DNA of 64,000 nt, from assembly GCA_045863195.1 (NCBI GenBank), contig BTUI01000010.1, positions 15,851 through 79,850 on the forward strand, written 5' to 3'. The notes beneath the pieces were generated by a model. The model was not told where the DNA came from, made no database searches, and was given only the letters and a program-made list of their open reading frames with translations. The position numbers were made by a program, and so were the translations under genes. The DNA is from Chloroflexota bacterium (GTDB lineage Bacteria; Chloroflexota; Dehalococcoidia; UBA2979). Positions 33,592-51,313 of this stretch are shown here, piece after piece. Position 1 is the first letter of the stretch, and each line of letters starts with the position of its first letter.

Positions 33592-33963
33592 ATGGGCAGT
33601 ACCACCGTCCTCGGACGCCGCGCCGACCACCGCCTCGCGCTGGTGCTCGTCGTCGCGCTGCTTGCACCCTCCCTCGGGCCGGCCGCTGGCTATGACATGT
33701 GGGCGTGGTTCCCCGACCATGGCCACGCGGCCCTGGGCGCGGTGCCCGGCAACCACACCCACCCGTGGGACGCCGCTCCCGCCTCCGGTGCGGCCGCCGA
33801 GGTCGAGTTCACGGCGGGCAGCCTGCTCGGAGCATCGATCCTGCCGGTGTTGCTTGTGGCCGTGGCGCTCGCTCCGGCGATGGTGTCGCGTGTGCTCGCG
33901 GAGCGACGCCAGCAGGTGCCGATGGCAACGGTGCCTGATGTCGAGGGGCCACCCCCGCGCTGA
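33592..33963 (+). CDS. Small His-rich membrane protein ending PPPR; candidate regulatory leader of sco-pcuAC
   Basis: N-terminal hydrophobic helix, PDHGH..HTH, second hydrophobic stretch, C-terminal EGPPPR*. Ends 36 nt before sco. Confidence 0.7.
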   Translation: MGSTTVLGRRADHRLALVLVVALLAPSLGPAAGYDMWAWFPDHGHAALGAVPGNHTHPWDAAPASGAAAEVEFTAGSLLGASILPVLLVAVALAPAMVSRVLAERRQQVPMATVPDVEGPPPR

Positions 33964-33995
33964 CCTCCCCCGTCGATCACTGACGATCTGGGAGG
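33964..33995 (+). promoter_or_regulatory. Anti-SD/SD hairpin sequestering the sco ribosome-binding site
   Basis: CCTCCC (33964-33969) pairs with GGGAGG (33990-33995), inner CGTC/GACG. ATG at 34000. Confidence 0.65.
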
Positions 33996-33999
33996 CTCC

Positions 34000-34620
34000 A
34001 TGAATCACGTGAAGGCACGCCGGCGCGGATTCGCCGTCGGGCTGCTGGCCGCCATCGCCGCGGTCGCCCTCGTGGGGTGTCGCGAGGAGGCGCCGGACTT
34101 CGCCTCGGCGGTCGCGGATCCGCCCGCTGCCATGCCGGCGTTCGAACTGGTGGCGGAGGATGGCTCGCCGTTCCGGCTGGCCGACCTGCAGGGGCGGGTG
34201 GCGGTGGTGTACGTGGGGTACACCTTCTGCCCGGACATGTGCCCGCTCACCATGTCCCTCCTGGCGGAGGCGGTGGACCTGCTCCCCGCTGAGGTCAGGG
34301 ACGGGGTCCAGGTGGTGATGCTCACTGCCGACCCGGAACGGGACACCCCGGAGCGGACCGGGGAGTACGTGGCGTACTTTGACCCCGAGTTCCTCGGTGT
34401 GTCCGGTGACCCGGATGCCGTGCATGAGGCGCTCGCCTCGTGGGGCATCCACCCGGAGCATGGTCCGGTGTCCGCGAATGGCGGCTATGCCGTTTCGCAC
34501 CCCACGCGTACCTATGTGTTCAACCGGGAGGGGCTACTGCGGCTGTACGTACCGCACGACCTGCCGGCTCAAACGGTCGCCGACGATCTCGAACTCGTCT
34601 GGCGCGAAGGGAATGACTGA
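34000..34620 (+). CDS. SCO1/SenC copper chaperone lipoprotein
   Basis: Lipobox LVGC, GYTFCPDMCP (CxxxC), DPERDTP, YAVSH. Confidence 0.93.
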   Translation: MNHVKARRRGFAVGLLAAIAAVALVGCREEAPDFASAVADPPAAMPAFELVAEDGSPFRLADLQGRVAVVYVGYTFCPDMCPLTMSLLAEAVDLLPAEVRDGVQVVMLTADPERDTPERTGEYVAYFDPEFLGVSGDPDAVHEALASWGIHPEHGPVSANGGYAVSHPTRTYVFNREGLLRLYVPHDLPAQTVADDLELVWREGND

Positions 34621-35219
34621 TGTTCAACAACATGACCCGCACCGCTCGACACGCCCTGCTGTTCGGCGGGCTTGCGCTCGCCGGCCTCACGGCGGTGGCC
34701 TGCTCATCGGATGAGGACGCCGAGGCGACCCCTGTCGCGACCGCTGAGGTGACCGCCGCCGCCACGTCCGAGGCGACCGCCTCCCCGACCGAGGCGGCCC
34801 AGCCGGCGATCGAGGTCGCCGAGATCCGCGCCCGCGCCACGCCCGGGCTGGAGAACGAGAACAGCGCCGCGTACGCGAAGATCACCAACCGTGGCGCGGA
34901 GGCCGACCGCCTCGTCGGCGCCTCGGTGGACGCGTCAATCGCCGCGACGGTGGAACTGCACACCACCGTGAAGGAGGGCGACATGATGCGCATGCAGCAG
35001 GTGGACGGCTGGGACATCGCCCCCGGCGAGACGCTGGAACTGGCCCCGGGCGGTAACCACGTCATGATCCTCGGCCTGGTTGACCAGTTCGAGGTGGGCG
35101 AGCGCTTCACGCTGACGCTCATCTTCGAGCAGGCTGGTGAGATCCAGGTCGAGGTGCCGGTCATGGAGATCGCCACCTCCGGCATGGGCGGCATGGCGAC
35201 GCCGGGTGCGATGAACTAG
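34620..35219 (+). CDS. PCu(A)C copper chaperone lipoprotein
   Basis: Lipobox VAC, VELH..MMRM..LAPGGNHVM. Confidence 0.93.
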   Translation: MFNNMTRTARHALLFGGLALAGLTAVACSSDEDAEATPVATAEVTAAATSEATASPTEAAQPAIEVAEIRARATPGLENENSAAYAKITNRGAEADRLVGASVDASIAATVELHTTVKEGDMMRMQQVDGWDIAPGETLELAPGGNHVMILGLVDQFEVGERFTLTLIFEQAGEIQVEVPVMEIATSGMGGMATPGAMN

Positions 35220-44635: not shown

Positions 44636-45483
44636 CGGGGGGCCTCGATCGCCCGCCGCAGCGCGGCCAGCGTCTCGGGCGCGTGGCCGAGGTCGAGCCG
44701 CAGGAGTTCGGCCGCCAGCGCGCGGTACAGCGCGGCGAGGTCGGGCGTCGTCGTGAGCGCCGCGAGGTGCCGCTCGACCGTCTCCACGTCGCCGCGCGCG
44801 ACCGGGCCGGTGAGCGCCCGCTCCAGCGGCAGCGCCGCCACGTTGCGGGCGGCGGCCAGGAGCAGCGGGGCCAGCGCCTCCCGCGCCGCCTCGGGTGACA
44901 ACCCCGCCGCGGACCAGGTCCGCGCCGCCGCCGCCATCAGGGCGACGGCATCGTTCGAGGCGAAGACCGCCGCGGCGTGGTAGGCCGCGCGGTCGACGCC
45001 CTCCAGGCGGACGCTCCGCGCACCGAGCGCCCCTGCCAGCGCCTCCAGGCGGGCGCCCAGCGGCTCCGGCGCTTCGATCCCGCAGGTGATGCCACGGAAC
45101 AGCGCGGGCGCCTCCTGCGGGGGCGTGCCGGCGGGGAACGTCTGGAGCGGGTGCAGGCACCCGGCAAGTGCGCCTCGGTCGGTCGCGCCGGCGAGGGCTT
45201 CGAGCCCGAGCGCGCCGGAGTGGTGGACGGCCGCCTGCCCGGGGCGCCACGACAGGCGGGCCGCCAGCGGCGCGATCTCCCGGTCCGGGACGGCCAGGTA
45301 GACCACGTCGCAGCGCTCGATCAGCACCTCGACCGGCGCGCCGGTGACGCCCGGCAGCGCGAGGAGCGCCGGGGCGGGCGGACGGCGGCTCGCGACCATC
45401 ACCGGGGCGCCGGTGGCCGCGAGGGCTGCGCTGAGGGCCGTTCCGAGGCGGCCCGGGCCGATCACGCCGGACGCGACAGACAT
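44632..45483 (-). CDS. Rossmann + DUF2520 protein (PanG-like)
   Basis: IGPGRLG, LAVPD, HHSGA, HPLQTF, YHAAAVFASN, LTGPVARGD. Confidence 0.85.
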   Translation of the reverse strand: MSVASGVIGPGRLGTALSAALAATGAPVMVASRRPPAPALLALPGVTGAPVEVLIERCDVVYLAVPDREIAPLAARLSWRPGQAAVHHSGALGLEALAGATDRGALAGCLHPLQTFPAGTPPQEAPALFRGITCGIEAPEPLGARLEALAGALGARSVRLEGVDRAAYHAAAVFASNDAVALMAAAARTWSAAGLSPEAAREALAPLLLAAARNVAALPLERALTGPVARGDVETVERHLAALTTTPDLAALYRALAAELLRLDLGHAPETLAALRRAIEAPR

Positions 45484-45554
45484 TCGTCCCCCCGAAACCG
45501 CCTCATCGTATTGCGTGCAGCGACCGAAAGAGTATTGTTCCGCATCATTCCGAT

Positions 45555-45571
45555 TCGCATCACAAATGCGA
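45555..45571 (+). promoter_or_regulatory. Inverted repeat in AT-rich divergent promoter region
   Basis: TCGCAT-CACAA-ATGCGA just upstream of the GGGAGG RBS of the 45592 lipoprotein. Confidence 0.45.
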
Positions 45572-45591
45572 TATTCATGGGAGGCACCAAC

Positions 45592-46782
45592 TTGCGCCGA
45601 TCTCTAGTGGCTGGGGTGGGAGGGCTGGTGTTGTTGGCCCTCGCTGCGACTGGCTGCGCATCGGACGAGGAGACCACCGAGGCCACGGTAGAGGCCGTGG
45701 CCACGGCGGCCGCGACCGAGGAGGCGCCCACGGCCACCCCCGAACCGGCGCCGACGCCGGACGCGGGGAACATGCTGGGGGCTCTGGTGCAGATCGACGG
45801 GGCAGGCTTTGCCGCGATCGACTCGAACCTGAACGGGGAGAAGCCGGAGATCGCGGCTGCGTGGCTCGGCAAGGTCGAGAAGGCGTCGCTCGCGGCGCAG
45901 TCCGTCCTGTGGCCTGACGCGACCAAGGGCGCGGTCGACGCGTTCGTGAAGGCCGCGAACGACCTCGCGGGTGCGCTGAAGGCGGACGACGCGGCGAAGG
46001 CGGCTCCGCTGGCGAAGGCTGCCGCGGAGGCGCAGGCGGCCCTGTCCGCGGAAACCTACAAGGCGGTGTCCGCGGCCGGTGCGAAGTCGGTCACGGGCGC
46101 TGGGCCCACGCTGGGCGCCCTCGGCGTGATCAACCTCGCCGGGATCGCCACGATGGAGAAGACGCTGGTCGACGGTGGCGAGGTCAACGCCGCCTGGGAG
46201 GGCCGCGTCGCGAACGCGCGCATCGCCGCGTCCGCGCTGGAGTGGCCGGGCGAGTCGCAGGCCGCGGCGGACACGTTCATCAAGGACGCGACCGCCTTCG
46301 AGGCGGCGATCAAGGCCGGGGATGCGGCGAAGGCGACCGAGGCCGCGACGGCCCTCAACAAGTCGCGCGGCACGCTGGCGACCCGCGGCTACGGCGCCCT
46401 GTCGGGCATGCGTGAGACGGCTGACGGCAACGGCGCGAAGCTCGCGGCGCTGGCCGCGGTTGACAACGCCGCGTTCCACGACATCGACGAGACGTTGAAC
46501 GGCGACAAGGCCGAGGTCAACGCCGCGTGGGCCGGCCGCATCGGCACGGCGAAGCGAGCCGTGCAGACGATCAAGTGGGGCGAGGGCGTCCAGGACCTCG
46601 CCACGACCCTCTCGCGCGCCATCTCCGCCCTGGAGACGGAGCTCGCGGTGAAGGACAAGGACGGCAAGCCTGCCGTGGACATCGCGAAGGCCGCCGCGGC
46701 GGCCAAGGCCGCCCACGAGGCGCAGCACGCCTTCAGCGAGAAGGCGTACGCCGGCCTCGGCAGCGGGGTGAGCGCTCACTAG
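45592..46782 (+). CDS. Uncharacterised lipoprotein with three helical repeats (paralogue A)
   Basis: GGGAGG then TTG start, lipobox ATGC, three units with W..WP. His motif only in repeat 3. Confidence 0.8.
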   Translation: MRRSLVAGVGGLVLLALAATGCASDEETTEATVEAVATAAATEEAPTATPEPAPTPDAGNMLGALVQIDGAGFAAIDSNLNGEKPEIAAAWLGKVEKASLAAQSVLWPDATKGAVDAFVKAANDLAGALKADDAAKAAPLAKAAAEAQAALSAETYKAVSAAGAKSVTGAGPTLGALGVINLAGIATMEKTLVDGGEVNAAWEGRVANARIAASALEWPGESQAAADTFIKDATAFEAAIKAGDAAKATEAATALNKSRGTLATRGYGALSGMRETADGNGAKLAALAAVDNAAFHDIDETLNGDKAEVNAAWAGRIGTAKRAVQTIKWGEGVQDLATTLSRAISALETELAVKDKDGKPAVDIAKAAAAAKAAHEAQHAFSEKAYAGLGSGVSAH

Positions 46783-46888
46783 TTCGCCCTTCGGTCCCGG
46801 TGGCGGCATCCGCCGCCCCCGGGGCTCCCGGGGTGCCCGCGCTCCAGGCCGATGCGATCCTTCGGGGACCCCACCGACGGAGCGCGCC

Positions 46889-47248
46889 GTGGCCCCAGTC
46901 CCGACCTTCGCGCCGTCCCGCCGCGCACCGAGGCGTGCAGCACTGATCCTGGTGCTCGCGTGGCTGCCGGGCCTCGCCTTCTTCGGCCACTGGTCGGAAC
47001 TCGCGGCGCCGCTCGGTATCCTTCCGGCCCCGTCTCATTCGCACGCGGCGTCCGGCGACCACGCCGACCACTGTCACGCGGATGTCTCGACCTGCGCCGA
47101 CCAGGGCAGCGCGCCTGTCCCCGTGGTCCCGCCGCACCTCGCCCTCGGCGTGGCCGCGACCGTTGCCCTGCTCCTCAGCGTGAGCGGGAAGCGCCTTCCC
47201 CTCGGGCAATCGTGGCTACCGCTGACCCCTCCACCGCGCACCGCCTGA
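46889..47248 (+). CDS. Small His/Cys-rich membrane protein ending PPPRTA; candidate regulatory leader
   Basis: GGAG then GTG. Hydrophobic N-helix, HSH..HADHCH-x5-C, hydrophobic stretch, LTPPPRTA*. Confidence 0.72.
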   Translation: MAPVPTFAPSRRAPRRAALILVLAWLPGLAFFGHWSELAAPLGILPAPSHSHAASGDHADHCHADVSTCADQGSAPVPVVPPHLALGVAATVALLLSVSGKRLPLGQSWLPLTPPPRTA

Positions 47249-47295
47249 GGCGTCCCCGCGCGGGACGCACGACTCACGCGATGCCTACCGGAGGG
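47227..47295 (+). promoter_or_regulatory. Anti-SD/SD pairing plus internal hairpin ahead of paralogue B
   Basis: CCCTCC (47227-47232, in the Thr-Pro-Pro codons) complements GGAGGG (47290-47295). GCGTCCC/GGGACGC hairpin at 47250-47268. Confidence 0.55.
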
Positions 47296-47302
47296 ATTCC
47301 CC

Positions 47303-48475
47303 TTGCGACGCTCGTTGATTGCGGGTGCCGGCGGCTTGCTCTTGATCGCCGCCGTCACGTCCGCCTGCACGTCTGACTCCGATGACATGACGCCGACCAC
47401 GGCCACGGCCACGGGGACGGCCACCCACACTGCCGAGGCGACCCCTCACACCGAGGACGCACATGGTGCCGTCGACCCCGGCGACCTGCTCGCGGCGGTG
47501 ATCCACCTGGATGCCGCCGGCTTCCACGCCATGGACGACGCGCTGAACGGCGATGCGCCCGAGATCGACCCCGCGTGGCTCGGCGCCGCCCAGCGCGCGC
47601 GGGTGGCCGTGGAGGCGGTTGCGTGGCCGGAGGGCCTCACGGACGCCGTGGAGGCGTTCGTGACGGCGAGCGCGGCACTCGAGGCTGCCCTCGACGCAGA
47701 TGACGCCGCGGCCGCGGCTCCGCTGGCCGTGACGGCACACGATACGCAGCACGCCCTCAGCCACGAGGCGTACCACGCGATCGGCGAGGCGGAGCCAGCC
47801 TCCGGCGGTGGGGCGACGCTGGCGGCGCTCGTGATCGTCGGTCGTGCCGGGCTCGTAGAGATGGCGTCGACGCTCGCCGGCGAGACGCCCGCGATCGACG
47901 CCGCGTGGCTCGGACGGGTAATGAACGCGCGCGCGGCGGCGGAGGCCGTTGCATGGCCAGGCGAGTCGCAGGCCGCGGCGGACGGCTTCATCGAGGCGGC
48001 GACCGCACTGGGAGCCGCGATCGAGTCGGACGACGTTGCGGCGACCGCCTCAGCGGTCGAGGTGGCGCTGCAGGCGCAGTCGACGCTCGCCACGCGCGCC
48101 TACGGCGCGCTGTCCGGCATGCGCGGCTCGGCCTCGTCGCCCGGGACGGTGCTGGCGGCGATTGCGATCATCGACGGTGCTGGCTTCCACGCCATGGACG
48201 ACGCACTGAACGGTGACGCGCCCGAGGTCGATGCCGCGTGGGCAGCGGCTGTGACGCGAGCGAAGCGTGCCGCTCAGACCGTGGCGTGGCCGGAGGGCGT
48301 GCAGCCGGCTGCCGATGCGTTCGTCGCCGCCGCCACCGCGCTGGAGACGGCGCTGACCGCGGCGGAGGTCGACCTCGCGGCTGCGGCGGAGGCGGCGGTC
48401 GCCGCGCACGAGACGCAGCACGACCTGAGCCATGACGCGTACGCTGCACTCGGTGGTACCGCCGGTGGGCACTAA
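47303..48475 (+). CDS. Uncharacterised lipoprotein with three helical repeats (paralogue B)
   Basis: TTG start, lipobox TSAC. Repeats 1 and 3 carry GFHAMDD..AH[DE]TQHxLSH. Confidence 0.82.
   Translation: MRRSLIAGAGGLLLIAAVTSACTSDSDDMTPTTATATGTATHTAEATPHTEDAHGAVDPGDLLAAVIHLDAAGFHAMDDALNGDAPEIDPAWLGAAQRARVAVEAVAWPEGLTDAVEAFVTASAALEAALDADDAAAAAPLAVTAHDTQHALSHEAYHAIGEAEPASGGGATLAALVIVGRAGLVEMASTLAGETPAIDAAWLGRVMNARAAAEAVAWPGESQAAADGFIEAATALGAAIESDDVAATASAVEVALQAQSTLATRAYGALSGMRGSASSPGTVLAAIAIIDGAGFHAMDDALNGDAPEVDAAWAAAVTRAKRAAQTVAWPEGVQPAADAFVAAATALETALTAAEVDLAAAAEAAVAAHETQHDLSHDAYAALGGTAGGH
47519..48241 (+). repeat. Intragenic direct repeat (repeat 1 versus repeat 3 of paralogue B)
   Basis: GGCTTCCACGCCATGGACGACGC is identical at 47519 and 48182; similarity continues for about 60 nt. 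Confidence 0.75.
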
Positions 48476-49064
48476 GCGATTCGGGCTGGTGGTTGGGCTG
48501 ATGGCGGCGCTTGCCGCCATCAGCCTCGCCTCGCCTCGCCCCGTGGCAGCGCACGCCGACTTCCTCCGCTCCGACCCGCCGGCGGGGGAGGCCGTGCGGT
48601 CCGCGCCGGGGCGCCTGACCGTCTGGTTCACGCAGGAGCTGTTCCGGCGCGCGGGTGCGAACGTGCTGGAAGTGACGGGGCCAGGAGGCGAGCGGGTTGA
48701 GCTCGACGATGTCGTGGTCGACGAGGTGGATCGCACGCAGATGTCCGTGGGGCTTAAGCCTGACCTGCCCGCCGGGGAGTACTCGGTGGCGTGGACCACG
48801 CTCTCGGCCGTGGACGGCGACACGCACGAGGGCTCCTTCACGTTCACCATCGACCCGGAAGCGCCGGCGCCTTCGCCCGCCCCGGAAGTGGTGACGCCAG
48901 TCGCCACCACCACCGCCGATCCGTCCCCGACGCCGGCGACGGCGTTGCCATACCCGGATGAGCCGGGAACGTTCCCGTGGTGGGCGGTGATCGCTGCGGC
49001 GGGCATGGCCGCGGCCGGACTTGCCGGGGCGTGGGCGCTCCGGCTGGGTGGCCACCGCTCGTGA
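48465..49064 (+). CDS. copC: Membrane-anchored CopC-family copper-binding protein
   Basis: VAA|HADFLRSDP, YSVAWTTLS.VDGD, Pro/Thr linker, C-terminal TM. Start uncertain (48432-48501). Confidence 0.82.
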   Translation: MGTKRFGLVVGLMAALAAISLASPRPVAAHADFLRSDPPAGEAVRSAPGRLTVWFTQELFRRAGANVLEVTGPGGERVELDDVVVDEVDRTQMSVGLKPDLPAGEYSVAWTTLSAVDGDTHEGSFTFTIDPEAPAPSPAPEVVTPVATTTADPSPTPATALPYPDEPGTFPWWAVIAAAGMAAAGLAGAWALRLGGHRS

Positions 49065-51313
49065 GGCGTACCGCCACGATCCTCGCGCTGGCCGTCCTTG
49101 TCCTCGCGGGGGCGTGGGCGGCCACGCGGGGCGTGGCGGAGGCGCATGCGGTGCTCGTGCGCTCCTCGCCCGCCGCAGGCGCGCAGTTGCCGGCCGCGCC
49201 GAGCGTTATCGACCTCTGGTTCTCGGAGCCGCTCGAGGCGCGCTTCTCGACGTTCGAGTTGCTTTCCACGGGCGGCGAAGCGCTCCCGGTGGACGGGCGG
49301 GCGGTGGATCCGCTGGACCCGTACCACCTGAGCGGATTGCCGCGCGGCCTGGGGCCGGGCCTCTACACCGTGTCGTACCGCAACGTCTCGCAGAGCGACG
49401 GGCACGAGTGGAGCGGGTCGTTCGCGTTCACCGTGCTGAATCCGGACGGCAGCGTGCCCTCAGGCGAGGCGTACCAGCCCGAACTCGGGCGGCGGAACTC
49501 GCCCGCGAACATCCTCGGCCGGTGGTTCACGTTCCTCGGGTTCTCGCTCGCGGCCGGCGGCGCGCCGCTGCTCTGGACGCTCCGTCGCGCGGAGCGGGCA
49601 GCGGGCCTCGTGCCGTTGCACGCAGAGGCGTCCCGGCGCGTCGCGCTGGCGGGGCTCCCGCTGCTGGTTGCGGGCGGCGCGCTCGTCATCACCGCGCAGG
49701 CGCAGGCGATCCCGGGGGCCGGCATCGTCGAGATCGCCGGCACCACGCGCGGCGGCACGATCTGGCTCTGGCGCATGCTCGCCGTCGAGGCCGTCTCGAT
49801 CCTGCTCGTGCTGTCGTTCCTCGCCGCCCGCTGGCGCGCGAGGCGTGGCGAAGTGGTGACGCTCGCTGCGCTCCCGCTCGCCGCGCTCGGGGGTCTCGCG
49901 ACGGTGTCGCTGCTCAGCCACGCCGCGGCGGCGCCGGGTTGGGGCTGGGCCGTCGCCTTCGACCTCGTGCACTTCGCCGTCTCCGCCGCGTGGATCGGCG
50001 GCCTCGTCGTGCTACTGGTACTGGCACGGGCCGCGAGCGGCGCCTCGGTCGAACGTGGCGCGGTGATGGTGCACGCGGTCGTGCCGTTCGCGACGTTCGC
50101 GGCCGCGTCCGTCTTCGTCCTCGGCGTGACCGGCGTGCTGCGGTCGCTGGGCGAACTGCCGTCGCTGCCCGCCCTCTGGGAGACGGAGTACGGCCGCTGG
50201 CTGATCGCGAAGCTGGCGCTCGTCCTGCCGATGCTCGGCGTCGCGTGGCTGAACCGCCGCGCGGTCGCCGCATCACGCGGCGCGAAGGGGAAGGCCGGGC
50301 TGGAGGCGGCAGCGGCGCGGGTGCGCCGCCTGTTGCCGCTGGAGGTCGCCGCCGGCGCGGCCGTGCTGTTCACCGTCGCCGTCCTCGGCCAGGTGCCGAC
50401 GCCGCGCGGTGCGACGGCGGTCGAGGCGGCGCCGGCGTCCGTGTTCAACGGTGTGGAGCAGTCCGGCACCCTCGCCGTCCACCTCCAGGTGACCCCGGCG
50501 GTCGTCGGCGACAACACGCTCCGCATCCACGTCTACAGCACCGCCCCCGCGGAGGGCTGGGCCGGCGATGCACCCACCGGCGAGGTGACCCGGGTGCGCG
50601 TCACGTTCGCGCAGGCGGGCGCCCTCGGCGGCGAGTCGGTGGACGCCGTGCCGCAAGGGCAGGGCATCTACACCGCGCAGGGCTCGTTCCTGAGCCTGGC
50701 GCTCACCTGGAACCTCACGGTCGATGTCGCGCGCGCCGGACAGGACGACGCGCGCTTCTCGTTCGTGGTGCCGATCGGGACGGGTGCCGCGGACGGCGCC
50801 TCGCGCGCTGCGTTCGCCTCGCCCGCGCCGCAACTCACGACGAGGGTGCTCGGCGCGCTGATCGCGCTCACGCTCGGCGCCGGCCTGGCGCTCGGGTGGC
50901 GGCATCACCCGCGCTACTCCGCGGCGACGCAGACCGCCGGCTGGGTGCTGATCCTCGGTGCGGTGTGGGTGGGGACGACCGGCGGTGGCGGCGGCACGGT
51001 CGGGAACCCCTCGCCCGGTGATCCGGCGGCGATCGAGCGCGGAGCAACGCTCTTCCAGCAACGGTGCGTGACCTGTCACGGCGACGAGGGTCGAGGCGAC
51101 GGCCCGGCCGCCGCCGACCTCACCCCGCCGCCGGCCGACCTCCGCCTCCACGTGCCGCTGCACCCGGACACGGAGACGTACCTGTTCATCACCAACGGGG
51201 TGCCGGGGACGGCCATGCCGGCGTGGGAGGAACTGCTGACCGAGCGCGAGCGCTGGGACCTGACGAACTACCTGATCGAGGCGTTCTCGAACGGCACCCA
51301 GCCGGCGCCGTAG
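49061..51313 (+). CDS. CopC-CopD (YcnJ-like) copper importer fused to Ig-like and cytochrome c domains
   Basis: AEA|HAVLVRSSP..SDGH, SHAAA..HF.VSAAWIGG, YGRWLIAKL, VTPAVVGDN, CVTCH..GTAMPAW. Confidence 0.85.
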   Translation: MRRTATILALAVLVLAGAWAATRGVAEAHAVLVRSSPAAGAQLPAAPSVIDLWFSEPLEARFSTFELLSTGGEALPVDGRAVDPLDPYHLSGLPRGLGPGLYTVSYRNVSQSDGHEWSGSFAFTVLNPDGSVPSGEAYQPELGRRNSPANILGRWFTFLGFSLAAGGAPLLWTLRRAERAAGLVPLHAEASRRVALAGLPLLVAGGALVITAQAQAIPGAGIVEIAGTTRGGTIWLWRMLAVEAVSILLVLSFLAARWRARRGEVVTLAALPLAALGGLATVSLLSHAAAAPGWGWAVAFDLVHFAVSAAWIGGLVVLLVLARAASGASVERGAVMVHAVVPFATFAAASVFVLGVTGVLRSLGELPSLPALWETEYGRWLIAKLALVLPMLGVAWLNRRAVAASRGAKGKAGLEAAAARVRRLLPLEVAAGAAVLFTVAVLGQVPTPRGATAVEAAPASVFNGVEQSGTLAVHLQVTPAVVGDNTLRIHVYSTAPAEGWAGDAPTGEVTRVRVTFAQAGALGGESVDAVPQGQGIYTAQGSFLSLALTWNLTVDVARAGQDDARFSFVVPIGTGAADGASRAAFASPAPQLTTRVLGALIALTLGAGLALGWRHHPRYSAATQTAGWVLILGAVWVGTTGGGGGTVGNPSPGDPAAIERGATLFQQRCVTCHGDEGRGDGPAAADLTPPPADLRLHVPLHPDTETYLFITNGVPGTAMPAWEELLTERERWDLTNYLIEAFSNGTQPAP

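Follow-up and report, generated by a model that had tools for sequence, protein, structure and literature searches.

Why should a small gene at the head of a copper operon carry, in its own last codons, the complement of the following gene's ribosome-binding site? The question is raised by a 119-amino-acid (aa) open reading frame (ORF) at positions 46889-47248 of a 64,000-nucleotide (nt) stretch of Chloroflexota DNA (GTDB lineage Bacteria; Chloroflexota; Dehalococcoidia; UBA2979; assembly GCA_045863195.1, contig BTUI01000010.1, positions 15,851 to 79,850 of the forward strand), which as a whole is referred to below as the window. A preliminary description of the window had singled out this ORF, here termed the leader of the HCH-PPPR family, together with a second ORF of similar layout at 33592-33963, here termed the His-only leader. 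The analysis presented here suggests that the HCH-PPPR leader is probably a metal-sensing ribosome-arrest leader of the CutF/CruR type, representing a new sequence family of a known class. We favor this reading because of the architecture it shares with these systems, its PxxPPPR tail like that of CutF, its agreement with the spacing rule described for CruR, its position in the operon and a predicted helix that masks the next gene's Shine-Dalgarno (SD) sequence.

The leader gene and its parts

The following elements can be distinguished in the leader gene:
46879-46882, plus strand: SD sequence GGAG of the leader, 6 nt 5' of the GTG at 46889, read from the sequence
46889-47248, plus strand: leader ORF of the HCH-PPPR family, 119 aa, GTG start, with relatives in 193 representative clusters
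46922-46978, plus strand: N-terminal hydrophobic helix (residues 12-30, after RRAPRR), helical in the structural model, a signal anchor or signal peptide
46985-47095, plus strand: His/Cys cluster G33-H34-W35, H50-S-H52 and H58-x-x-H61-C62-H63-x5-C69, delineated by conservation in 150 sequences
47096-47218, plus strand: linker of variable sequence and fixed length, including a hydrophobic stretch (residues 82-99)
47219-47239, plus strand: P111-L-T-P-P-P-R117, putative ribosome-arrest motif PxxPPPR, ending three positions before the stop (tail LTPPPRTA-stop)
47246-47248, plus strand: stop codon TGA, read from the sequence

The N-terminal helix, the His/Cys cluster, the hydrophobic stretch and the terminal LTPPPRTA are thus all found where the preliminary description had placed them. 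Within the cluster, HSH corresponds to residues 50-52 and HADHCHADVSTC to residues 58-69 (H58-A-D-H-C-H-A-D-V-S-T-C69). The ORF is a real gene: its G+C content at the three codon positions (0.77/0.61/0.83) follows the pattern of genuine genes and resembles that of the next gene (0.77/0.59/0.86). The GTG start at 46889 is putative, and of two cluster mates a close one is likewise 119 aa while another has been called at 100 aa. An AlphaFold2 model built from the 150-sequence alignment described below contains helices at residues 12-30, 35-42 and 82-99, and shows no confident compact fold (predicted TM-score, pTM, 0.33; mean predicted local distance difference test score, pLDDT, 76).

Searches of Pfam and NCBIfam gave no significant match for either leader or for either of the two lipoproteins encoded next to the HCH-PPPR leader, which itself has no Pfam match at E<=0.1. 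A scan of 46500-47600 against Rfam found no family, only a single match at chance level, and a search of 45300-47500 for promoters and terminators found no promoter-like site and one terminator-like site, on the minus strand. Short contigs from four RNA-library runs match 47017-47258 and 47071-47221 with 0 differences, and another spans the junction between the upstream lipoprotein gene and the leader (46700-46959, 2 differences); with a depth of 2-4, possible DNA carry-over and none extending across the leader-lipoprotein junction, these contigs are evidence neither for nor against expression of the leader.

Conservation of the metal motif, the tail and the distance between them

A word-based search with the leader ORF recovered 5 relatives among 134 candidates, and a profile made from these proteins, run against 1.84 billion representatives, returned 193 matches at E<=1e-3, of which 34 reached E<=1e-10 and two E<=1e-30. 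Most of the best 150 among the 193 are 95-170 aa in length (full range 95-244 aa), and 141 of the 150 possess a hydrophobic N-terminal segment, represented in the leader ORF by a helix of 19 residues after an Arg-rich start. The mean column identity in the alignment of these 150 sequences is only 12%; H34 is invariant, and a conservation of at least 90% is reached by P27, G33, W35, H58, H61, C62, H63, C69 and both prolines that precede the Arg. When three of the word-search proteins are counted with the best 150 matches, 150 of the resulting 153 sequences contain HCHx4-6C and 144 combine it with a PP[RQKEN] motif within the last 20 residues (PPR in 121, PPQ in 8, PPK in 6, PPE in 5 and PPN in 4, preceded by a further Pro in 89). 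The remaining nine include three in which the Cys motif was not found by pattern and six without the tail. The tail motif is followed by 0-12 residues, and a logo anchored on the PP and made without alignment gives Pro at -4 (78%), Pro at -1 (63%) and Arg at +2 (84%), i.e. PxxPPPR.

The distance between these two motifs is fixed in the family. From the last Cys to the PP (measured to the first Pro of the PP before Arg) there are 45-51 residues, with a median of 49, in all 144 measurable members, and 46 in the leader ORF itself. The distance from the GH to the HCH varies from 10 to 96 residues, the sequence of the linker is variable, and a hydrophobic linker segment is present in only 68 of the 150 relatives. 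The same measurement was made in 28 alphaproteobacterial genes of the DUF2946 family (L063-L090), to which CruR belongs; all 28 bear an [R/Q][A/G]PP-type tail with an invariant PP 1-20 residues before the stop, and 25 of them allowed the distance from the last Cys to the PP to be measured, which was 44-51 residues in each. This is an independent reproduction of the rule reported for CruR, in which 45 intervening residues separate the Cys motif from the arrest site, a distance described as conserved within 1-2 residues in more than 2000 proteins, as functionally relevant and as sensitive to a change of five residues (PMC9426467). The HCH-PPPR family has the spacing of about 45 residues from Cys motif to Pro-Pro that characterizes DUF2946.

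The sequences of the HCH-PPPR family fall in no Pfam family and are unnamed: the few cluster members that bear a name are "hypothetical proteins" of Tepidiformaceae and Dehalococcoidia metagenome-assembled genomes (MAGs), and two related contigs are labeled as Chloroflexi and Dehalococcoidia MAGs. Counting the present genome, 10 of the 99 genomes from the window's order, belonging to 3 of 21 genera, contain a member, as do 4 of the 401 genomes sampled from the phylum; a search of 151 alphaproteobacterial genomes yielded no genuine member. DUF6153 is touched by two of the 150 relatives (E=0.0065). Several candidates were rejected: those in Erythrobacter (L005) and at L093/L094 are out-of-frame matches within other genes, and three weaker matches obtained when the phylum was scanned, two of them in G390 and one in G223 (L019-L021, L031, L032), lack the motifs by pattern or contain in-frame stops and were left out of all counts.

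Predicted masking of the next gene's Shine-Dalgarno sequence

The elements predicted to link the end of the leader to the start of the next gene are:
47227-47232, plus strand: anti-SD CCCUCC in codons 113-115 (T113-P114-P115, ACC CCT CCA), pairing with 47290-47295
47250-47268, plus strand: 7-bp GC hairpin (47250-47256/47262-47268) within the long-range helix of the predicted fold
47290-47295, plus strand: SD sequence GGAGGG of the lipoprotein gene, 7 nt before its TTG at 47303

The complementarity of the Thr-Pro-Pro codons to this SD, already noticed in the preliminary description, translates into a predicted helix: in the fold of a 121-nt segment CCCUCC pairs with GGAGGG in both the minimum free energy and the centroid structure, enclosing the 7-bp hairpin, which also folds on its own as had been proposed. 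That description had allowed for a fold in which the SD stays unpaired. The calculated probability of its being unpaired, P(unpaired), is 0.0016, versus a median of 0.28 in 200 random genes of the genome with GGAGG 5-9 nt before the start. The leader motif is encoded by CCT CCA CCG; CCT and CCA are rare, accounting for only 4.5% and 5.7%, respectively, of the Pro codons in 1425 long genes of the genome. Twelve distinct loci of the family were compared, namely the window, L003 and L004 (of which L006 and L007 are repeats) and those of nine more genomes from the order and class. At five of them, the window and L025-L028, the SD has a CCUCC in the Pro codons as its partner, and at two, L029 and L030, the partner is situated at the stop or shortly ahead of it. 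The SD has a P(unpaired) of 0.1 or less at eight of the twelve.

Gene neighborhoods

In the window the leader is followed, after a gap of 54 nt, by a lipoprotein gene and then by the genes for CopC and a CopC-CopD-cytochrome c fusion (CopCD):
47303-48475, plus strand: lipoprotein in which an unnamed four-helix-bundle domain occurs as three repeats, TTG start, proposed as the directly controlled gene
48432-49064, plus strand: CopC (PF04234, E=1.8e-16)
48977-51313, plus strand: CopC-CopD-cytochrome c fusion (PF04234, PF05425, PF13442), longest ORF, the true start of which is probably later

The arrangement is conserved. At all twelve loci the next gene on the same strand encodes a lipoprotein related to 47303-48475 and begins 22-54 nt past the stop of the leader; at two of them a longest-ORF rule had chosen a spurious frame and a gene caller found the lipoprotein. 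The CopC-CopD-cytochrome c gene follows the lipoprotein at ten loci, SCO1 and PCuAC follow it at L030, and at L004 the contig ends there.

The relatives of the lipoprotein hold one to four copies of a helical domain of about 110 residues, for which an ESM Atlas model shows a four-helix bundle whose nearest structural neighbors are hypothetical proteins. One Chloroflexota cluster among these neighbors has the domain fused to DUF1775, a YcnI-type copper protein. The window contains two paralogous lipoproteins (45577-46782 and 47303-48475), which are 47% identical and have three repeats of about 110 residues each, with conserved His and Trp. The paralogue at 45577-46782 is found upstream of the leader in this genus; other genera have unrelated or divergent genes in the upstream position.

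The second leader and the His-only family

The other small ORF in the window heads a different pair of copper genes:
33592-33963, plus strand: His-only leader, 123 aa, with WFPDHGH...HTHPWD and the ending EGPPPR-stop
33964-33969, plus strand: anti-SD CCUCCC directly after the leader stop, pairing with GGGAGG at 33990-33995 before SCO1 (34000)
34000-34620, plus strand: SCO1/SenC, Pfam match
34620-35219, plus strand: PCuAC, Pfam match

This leader has three relatives by word search, and its profile has matches, up to four per genome, in 36 of the 99 genomes from the order, representing 11 of 21 genera, making it commoner than the HCH-PPPR family. WxPDHGH, HxHPWD and a vFTxGD element are common to its members, and at 28 of 30 loci the stop is preceded at a distance of 0, 1 or 6 residues by a PP[RQK] motif. 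The genes downstream are SCO1 and PCuAC in 12 of the 30 loci, CopC/CopCD in eight, PCuAC alone in one and the lipoprotein alone in one; nothing recognizable follows in six, one is doubtful and one offers too little sequence. The preliminary description had observed that both leaders of the window head copper operons, and this extends to 12 of 12 loci of the HCH-PPPR family and 22 of 30 loci of the His-only family. At L045, L049, L050, L054, L055 and L057, all from genus g19, the downstream genes have no recognizable identity.

The two leader families do not resemble each other outside the tail. BLASTP of the HCH-PPPR leader against the His-only leader detected no similarity, and hhalign aligned only the last 19 columns of the two families, with a probability of 45%. 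As the families can be aligned only in the tail, their sensor motifs look interchangeable. In the His-only family the distance from the His motif to the PP varies from 61 to 109 residues, and it is the Phe/Tyr of vFTxGD that precedes the PP by 45-52 residues, as judged by pattern at 23 of 28 loci; the other five have the element with different residues at about the same place. At 15 of 27 loci the partner of the SD lies between -12 and +18 nt from the PP codons, mostly as a CCUC just past the stop. The preliminary description had presented an anti-SD at the putative stall site as common to both leaders; one that a ribosome stalled at the prolines could reach recurs in 5-7 of 12 HCH-PPPR loci and 15 of 27 His-only loci.

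Outside the window, a weak match to the His-family profile at C6:42357-42542 (E=4.5e-7) covers the N-terminal part only and lies inside an open frame of 229 aa. This may represent a fused form or a third paralogue; a frame containing HGH was sought there and not recovered.

Relationship to CutF, CruR and other arrest peptides

CutF is one of the closest known counterparts of the HCH-PPPR leader. CutF of Rhodobacter capsulatus, encoded in cutFOG, is described as an exported protein of 118 aa with a CxxxC motif, a signal peptide and a proline-rich C-terminus needed in cis, which opens a stem-loop over the cutO SD when copper is present (PMC9973294). Its metal motif is reported as C69xxHC73 (PMC8456105) and its arrest motif as P109EPEGPPPRL118, whose deletion or change from PPP to PAP is said to abolish Cu-dependent CutO production (bioRxiv 10.1101/2025.02.05.636593; PMC8456105). 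EF-P, which counteracts the stall according to the same preprint (bioRxiv 10.1101/2025.02.05.636593), is encoded in the genome studied here. CutF-like proteins were defined by a length of less than 150 aa, a PP among the last 15 residues, the presence of a signal peptide and a neighbor on the same strand, and were reported to form 29 clusters with Cys, His or mixed motifs ahead of copper genes including PCuAC (PMC9973294).

Compared with this published description of CutF, the leader is of nearly the same size (119 versus 118 aa), has PPP at 114-116 and Arg at 117 as CutF does, and shares the Pro at -4 (PLTPPPRTA versus PEGPPPRL). Both proteins combine an N-terminal export signal, putative in the leader, with a central metal motif (H61-C62-H63...C69 versus C69xxHC73). 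Both are encoded by the first gene of a copper operon, a short gap away from a gene whose SD is hidden in RNA structure, and the neighbors reported for the CutF class (CopC, CopD, SenC/SCO1 and PCuAC) resemble those at the leader loci. As regards the definition of the class, the leader is below 150 aa, has its PPP within the last 15 residues and is followed after 54 nt by its neighbor, with CopC and CopCD beyond; the RNA structure shielding the SD is present in silico. The differences are that the metal motif of the leader is His-rich (HxxHCHx5C plus GHW) whereas that of CutF is CxxxC, that the gene proposed to be controlled encodes an unnamed four-helix lipoprotein rather than a multicopper oxidase, that the arrest codons themselves contain the anti-SD, which in CutF belongs to an intergenic stem-loop, that the distance from Cys to PPP is 45 in the leader and 41 in CutF by the published numbering, and that the leader comes from Chloroflexota, CutF from Proteobacteria.

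CruR (Bp2923) of Bordetella pertussis, the prototype of DUF2946 (PF11162), is reported to act in a Rho-dependent manner over a spacer of 162 nt, in a family with typically long gaps and neighbors including SCO1, PCuAC and CopC (PMC9426467), and its arrest has been demonstrated in vitro (PMC12992588). Like CruR, the leader is a small first gene of copper operons, also with SCO1, PCuAC and CopC among the neighbors, and has a Cys sensor motif about 45 residues before a C-terminal Pro-Pro. However, CruR combines CxxC with RAPP, neither of which characterizes the leader with its HCHx5C and PPPR, and its action via Rho over 162 nt, independent of signal peptide and EF-P, differs from gaps of 22-54 nt with predicted sequestration of the SD.

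SecM, MifM, VemP and ApdA/ApdP monitor the activity of Sec or YidC by means of arrest sequences of the RAGP or RAPP types. They share with the proposed leader an exported or membrane-targeted nascent chain, a C-terminal arrest and a paused ribosome that opens the RNA over an SD. The signal to which they respond is secretion, whereas that proposed for the leader is a metal.

The idea of a recurring system with interchangeable sensors, put forward in the preliminary description, is upheld as far as the recurrence and the non-alignable sensors are concerned. It does not stand as a novelty in kind, since the CutF/CruR class had been described before, with varied Cys/His motifs and with Chloroflexota members reported as "scarce" (PMC9973294). 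A literature search (CutF-like; Chloroflexota with arrest peptide and copper) found no description of the two leader families, which may already be in one of the published CutF-like clusters (PMC9973294).

Proposed mechanism

In the mechanism that we infer from these features, the N-terminal hydrophobic helix would bring the nascent chain to the membrane, and the His/Cys cluster (H34, H58, H61, C62, H63, C69) would emerge on its outer side. About 46 residues after the cluster the ribosome would meet P-x-x-P-P-P-R and pause. The paused ribosome would cover the CCCUCC of codons 113-115 and free the GGAGGG, allowing translation of the lipoprotein, CopC and CopCD; if the pause were resolved fast, the ribosome would terminate, the helix would re-form and the operon would stay low. 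Occupancy of the metal site might set the length of the pause by altering the force on the exposed chain or its folding. Copper is most likely the metal sensed. We lean slightly towards the logic of CruR, in which the metal-free chain would pause (on) and copper would release it (off), because the genes that follow have the appearance of a system for acquiring and delivering copper.

If the leaders act in this manner, the CutF/CruR principle of an exported nascent peptide that senses a metal and halts its own ribosome would reach into uncultured Chloroflexota and cover two families whose sensor motifs are built on His rather than Cys. The first target of the switch would regularly be the unnamed four-helix-bundle lipoprotein, which is probably related to copper, and two sets of "hypothetical proteins" can now be labeled as candidate leader peptides of copper operons.

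DUF2946 (CxxC...RAPP), the HCH-PPPR family (HCHx5C...PPPR) and the His-only family (WxPDHGH...HxHPWD...vFTxGD...PPPR) are three mutually unalignable leader families in which a sensor element lies about 48 residues before the Pro-Pro. The spacing of 45-51 residues across such families is a concrete geometric rule that can be tested. It is conceivable, if somewhat doubtful, that the arrest tail and this ruler form a general platform on which different metal motifs arose by convergence. Should this be true, rather than a hidden common descent, there would be a fixed point on the path from ribosome to membrane at which the chain reports metal binding, and Chloroflexota would possess an extracytoplasmic copper sensor that needs no dedicated regulator protein.

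Evaluation of the proposal and of alternative explanations

Several observations weigh against an arrest leader that acts on the SD. The CutF motif alone is reported not to be a strong staller in E. coli-based tests (PMC9973294). No relationship to DUF2946 emerged from the profile comparison that the preliminary description had called for: PF11162 matched none of the 150 HCH-PPPR relatives at E<=1, nor the leader ORF, a scan of the whole genome gave no match above cut-off, and hhalign of two leader alignments against the 28 alphaproteobacterial sequences returned probabilities of 2.2% and 1.4%. The conserved length may also be a property of a folded protein, and the local confidence of the structural model is moderate rather than low (mean pLDDT 76). 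On the RNA side, the energy of the fold is ordinary (z = -1.5), 8% of the 200 control SDs are as buried as that of the lipoprotein gene (P(unpaired) of 0.01 or less), and the partner of the SD lies elsewhere at five of the twelve loci, including the closest orthologues L003 and L004. Moreover, the loci are related by descent, so the counts overstate their independence.

One alternative is a stable small membrane protein that binds copper on the outer face, serving as a chaperone or partner of the lipoprotein, CopC or CopD and exerting no control over translation; the PxxPPPR would then be a polyproline interaction motif. The conserved His/Cys ligands next to a membrane helix, the constant association with copper-handling proteins, the second hydrophobic segment in 68 of 150 members and the moderate model confidence are all compatible with such a role, and CutF itself was first interpreted in this way (PMC8456105). 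We nevertheless consider it unlikely. The spacing is fixed despite an unconserved linker and equals that of the CruR family, the leader gene invariably comes first and is separated from its successor by a short gap, the tail is the same as the arrest motif of CutF and the pTM is only 0.33. In addition, an anti-SD is found repeatedly at the pause site, in the His-only family even past the stop codon, where it is of no use to the protein.

A second alternative keeps the arrest and moves its effect to transcription: as in CruR, the paused ribosome would block Rho-dependent termination without any pairing of the SD. The spacing shared with CruR, the five of twelve loci without the anti-SD, and downstream genes that look like copper acquisition, comparable to the transporter of CruR, would be consistent with this. 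However, the gaps of 22-54 nt contrast with the 162 nt of cruR-bfrG in a family where long gaps are reported as typical (PMC9426467), the tail is PPPR instead of RAPP and the SD is strongly sequestered in the predicted fold, so that we regard this mode of action as improbable.

Chance is a third alternative. The genome contains 10,278 ORFs with lengths of 60-180 aa, and the scan proposed in the preliminary description found a PPPR within the last 4-10 residues in 33 of them, six of which pass a crude G+C filter; only two combine a real-gene G+C pattern with a hydrophobic N-terminus. These two are the leaders described above, both ahead of copper genes. That a 6-bp GC match and a PPP tail are functionless ornaments of a conserved hypothetical protein is very improbable, the 71% G+C of the genome, the 33 PPPR endings and the buried control SDs notwithstanding, and is disfavored by conservation of the motif in 144 of 153 HCH-PPPR relatives and 28 of 30 His-only loci.

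A looser tail pattern adds three unrelated proteins in the genome. A secreted Cys-rich protein of 130 aa ending in GLPPR-stop is encoded outside the window, on the minus strand (G000:C7:52532-52924). It contains a C-x-x-H-D-x-C element, which we take to be reminiscent of bacterial phospholipase A2, and is probably unrelated to the leaders.

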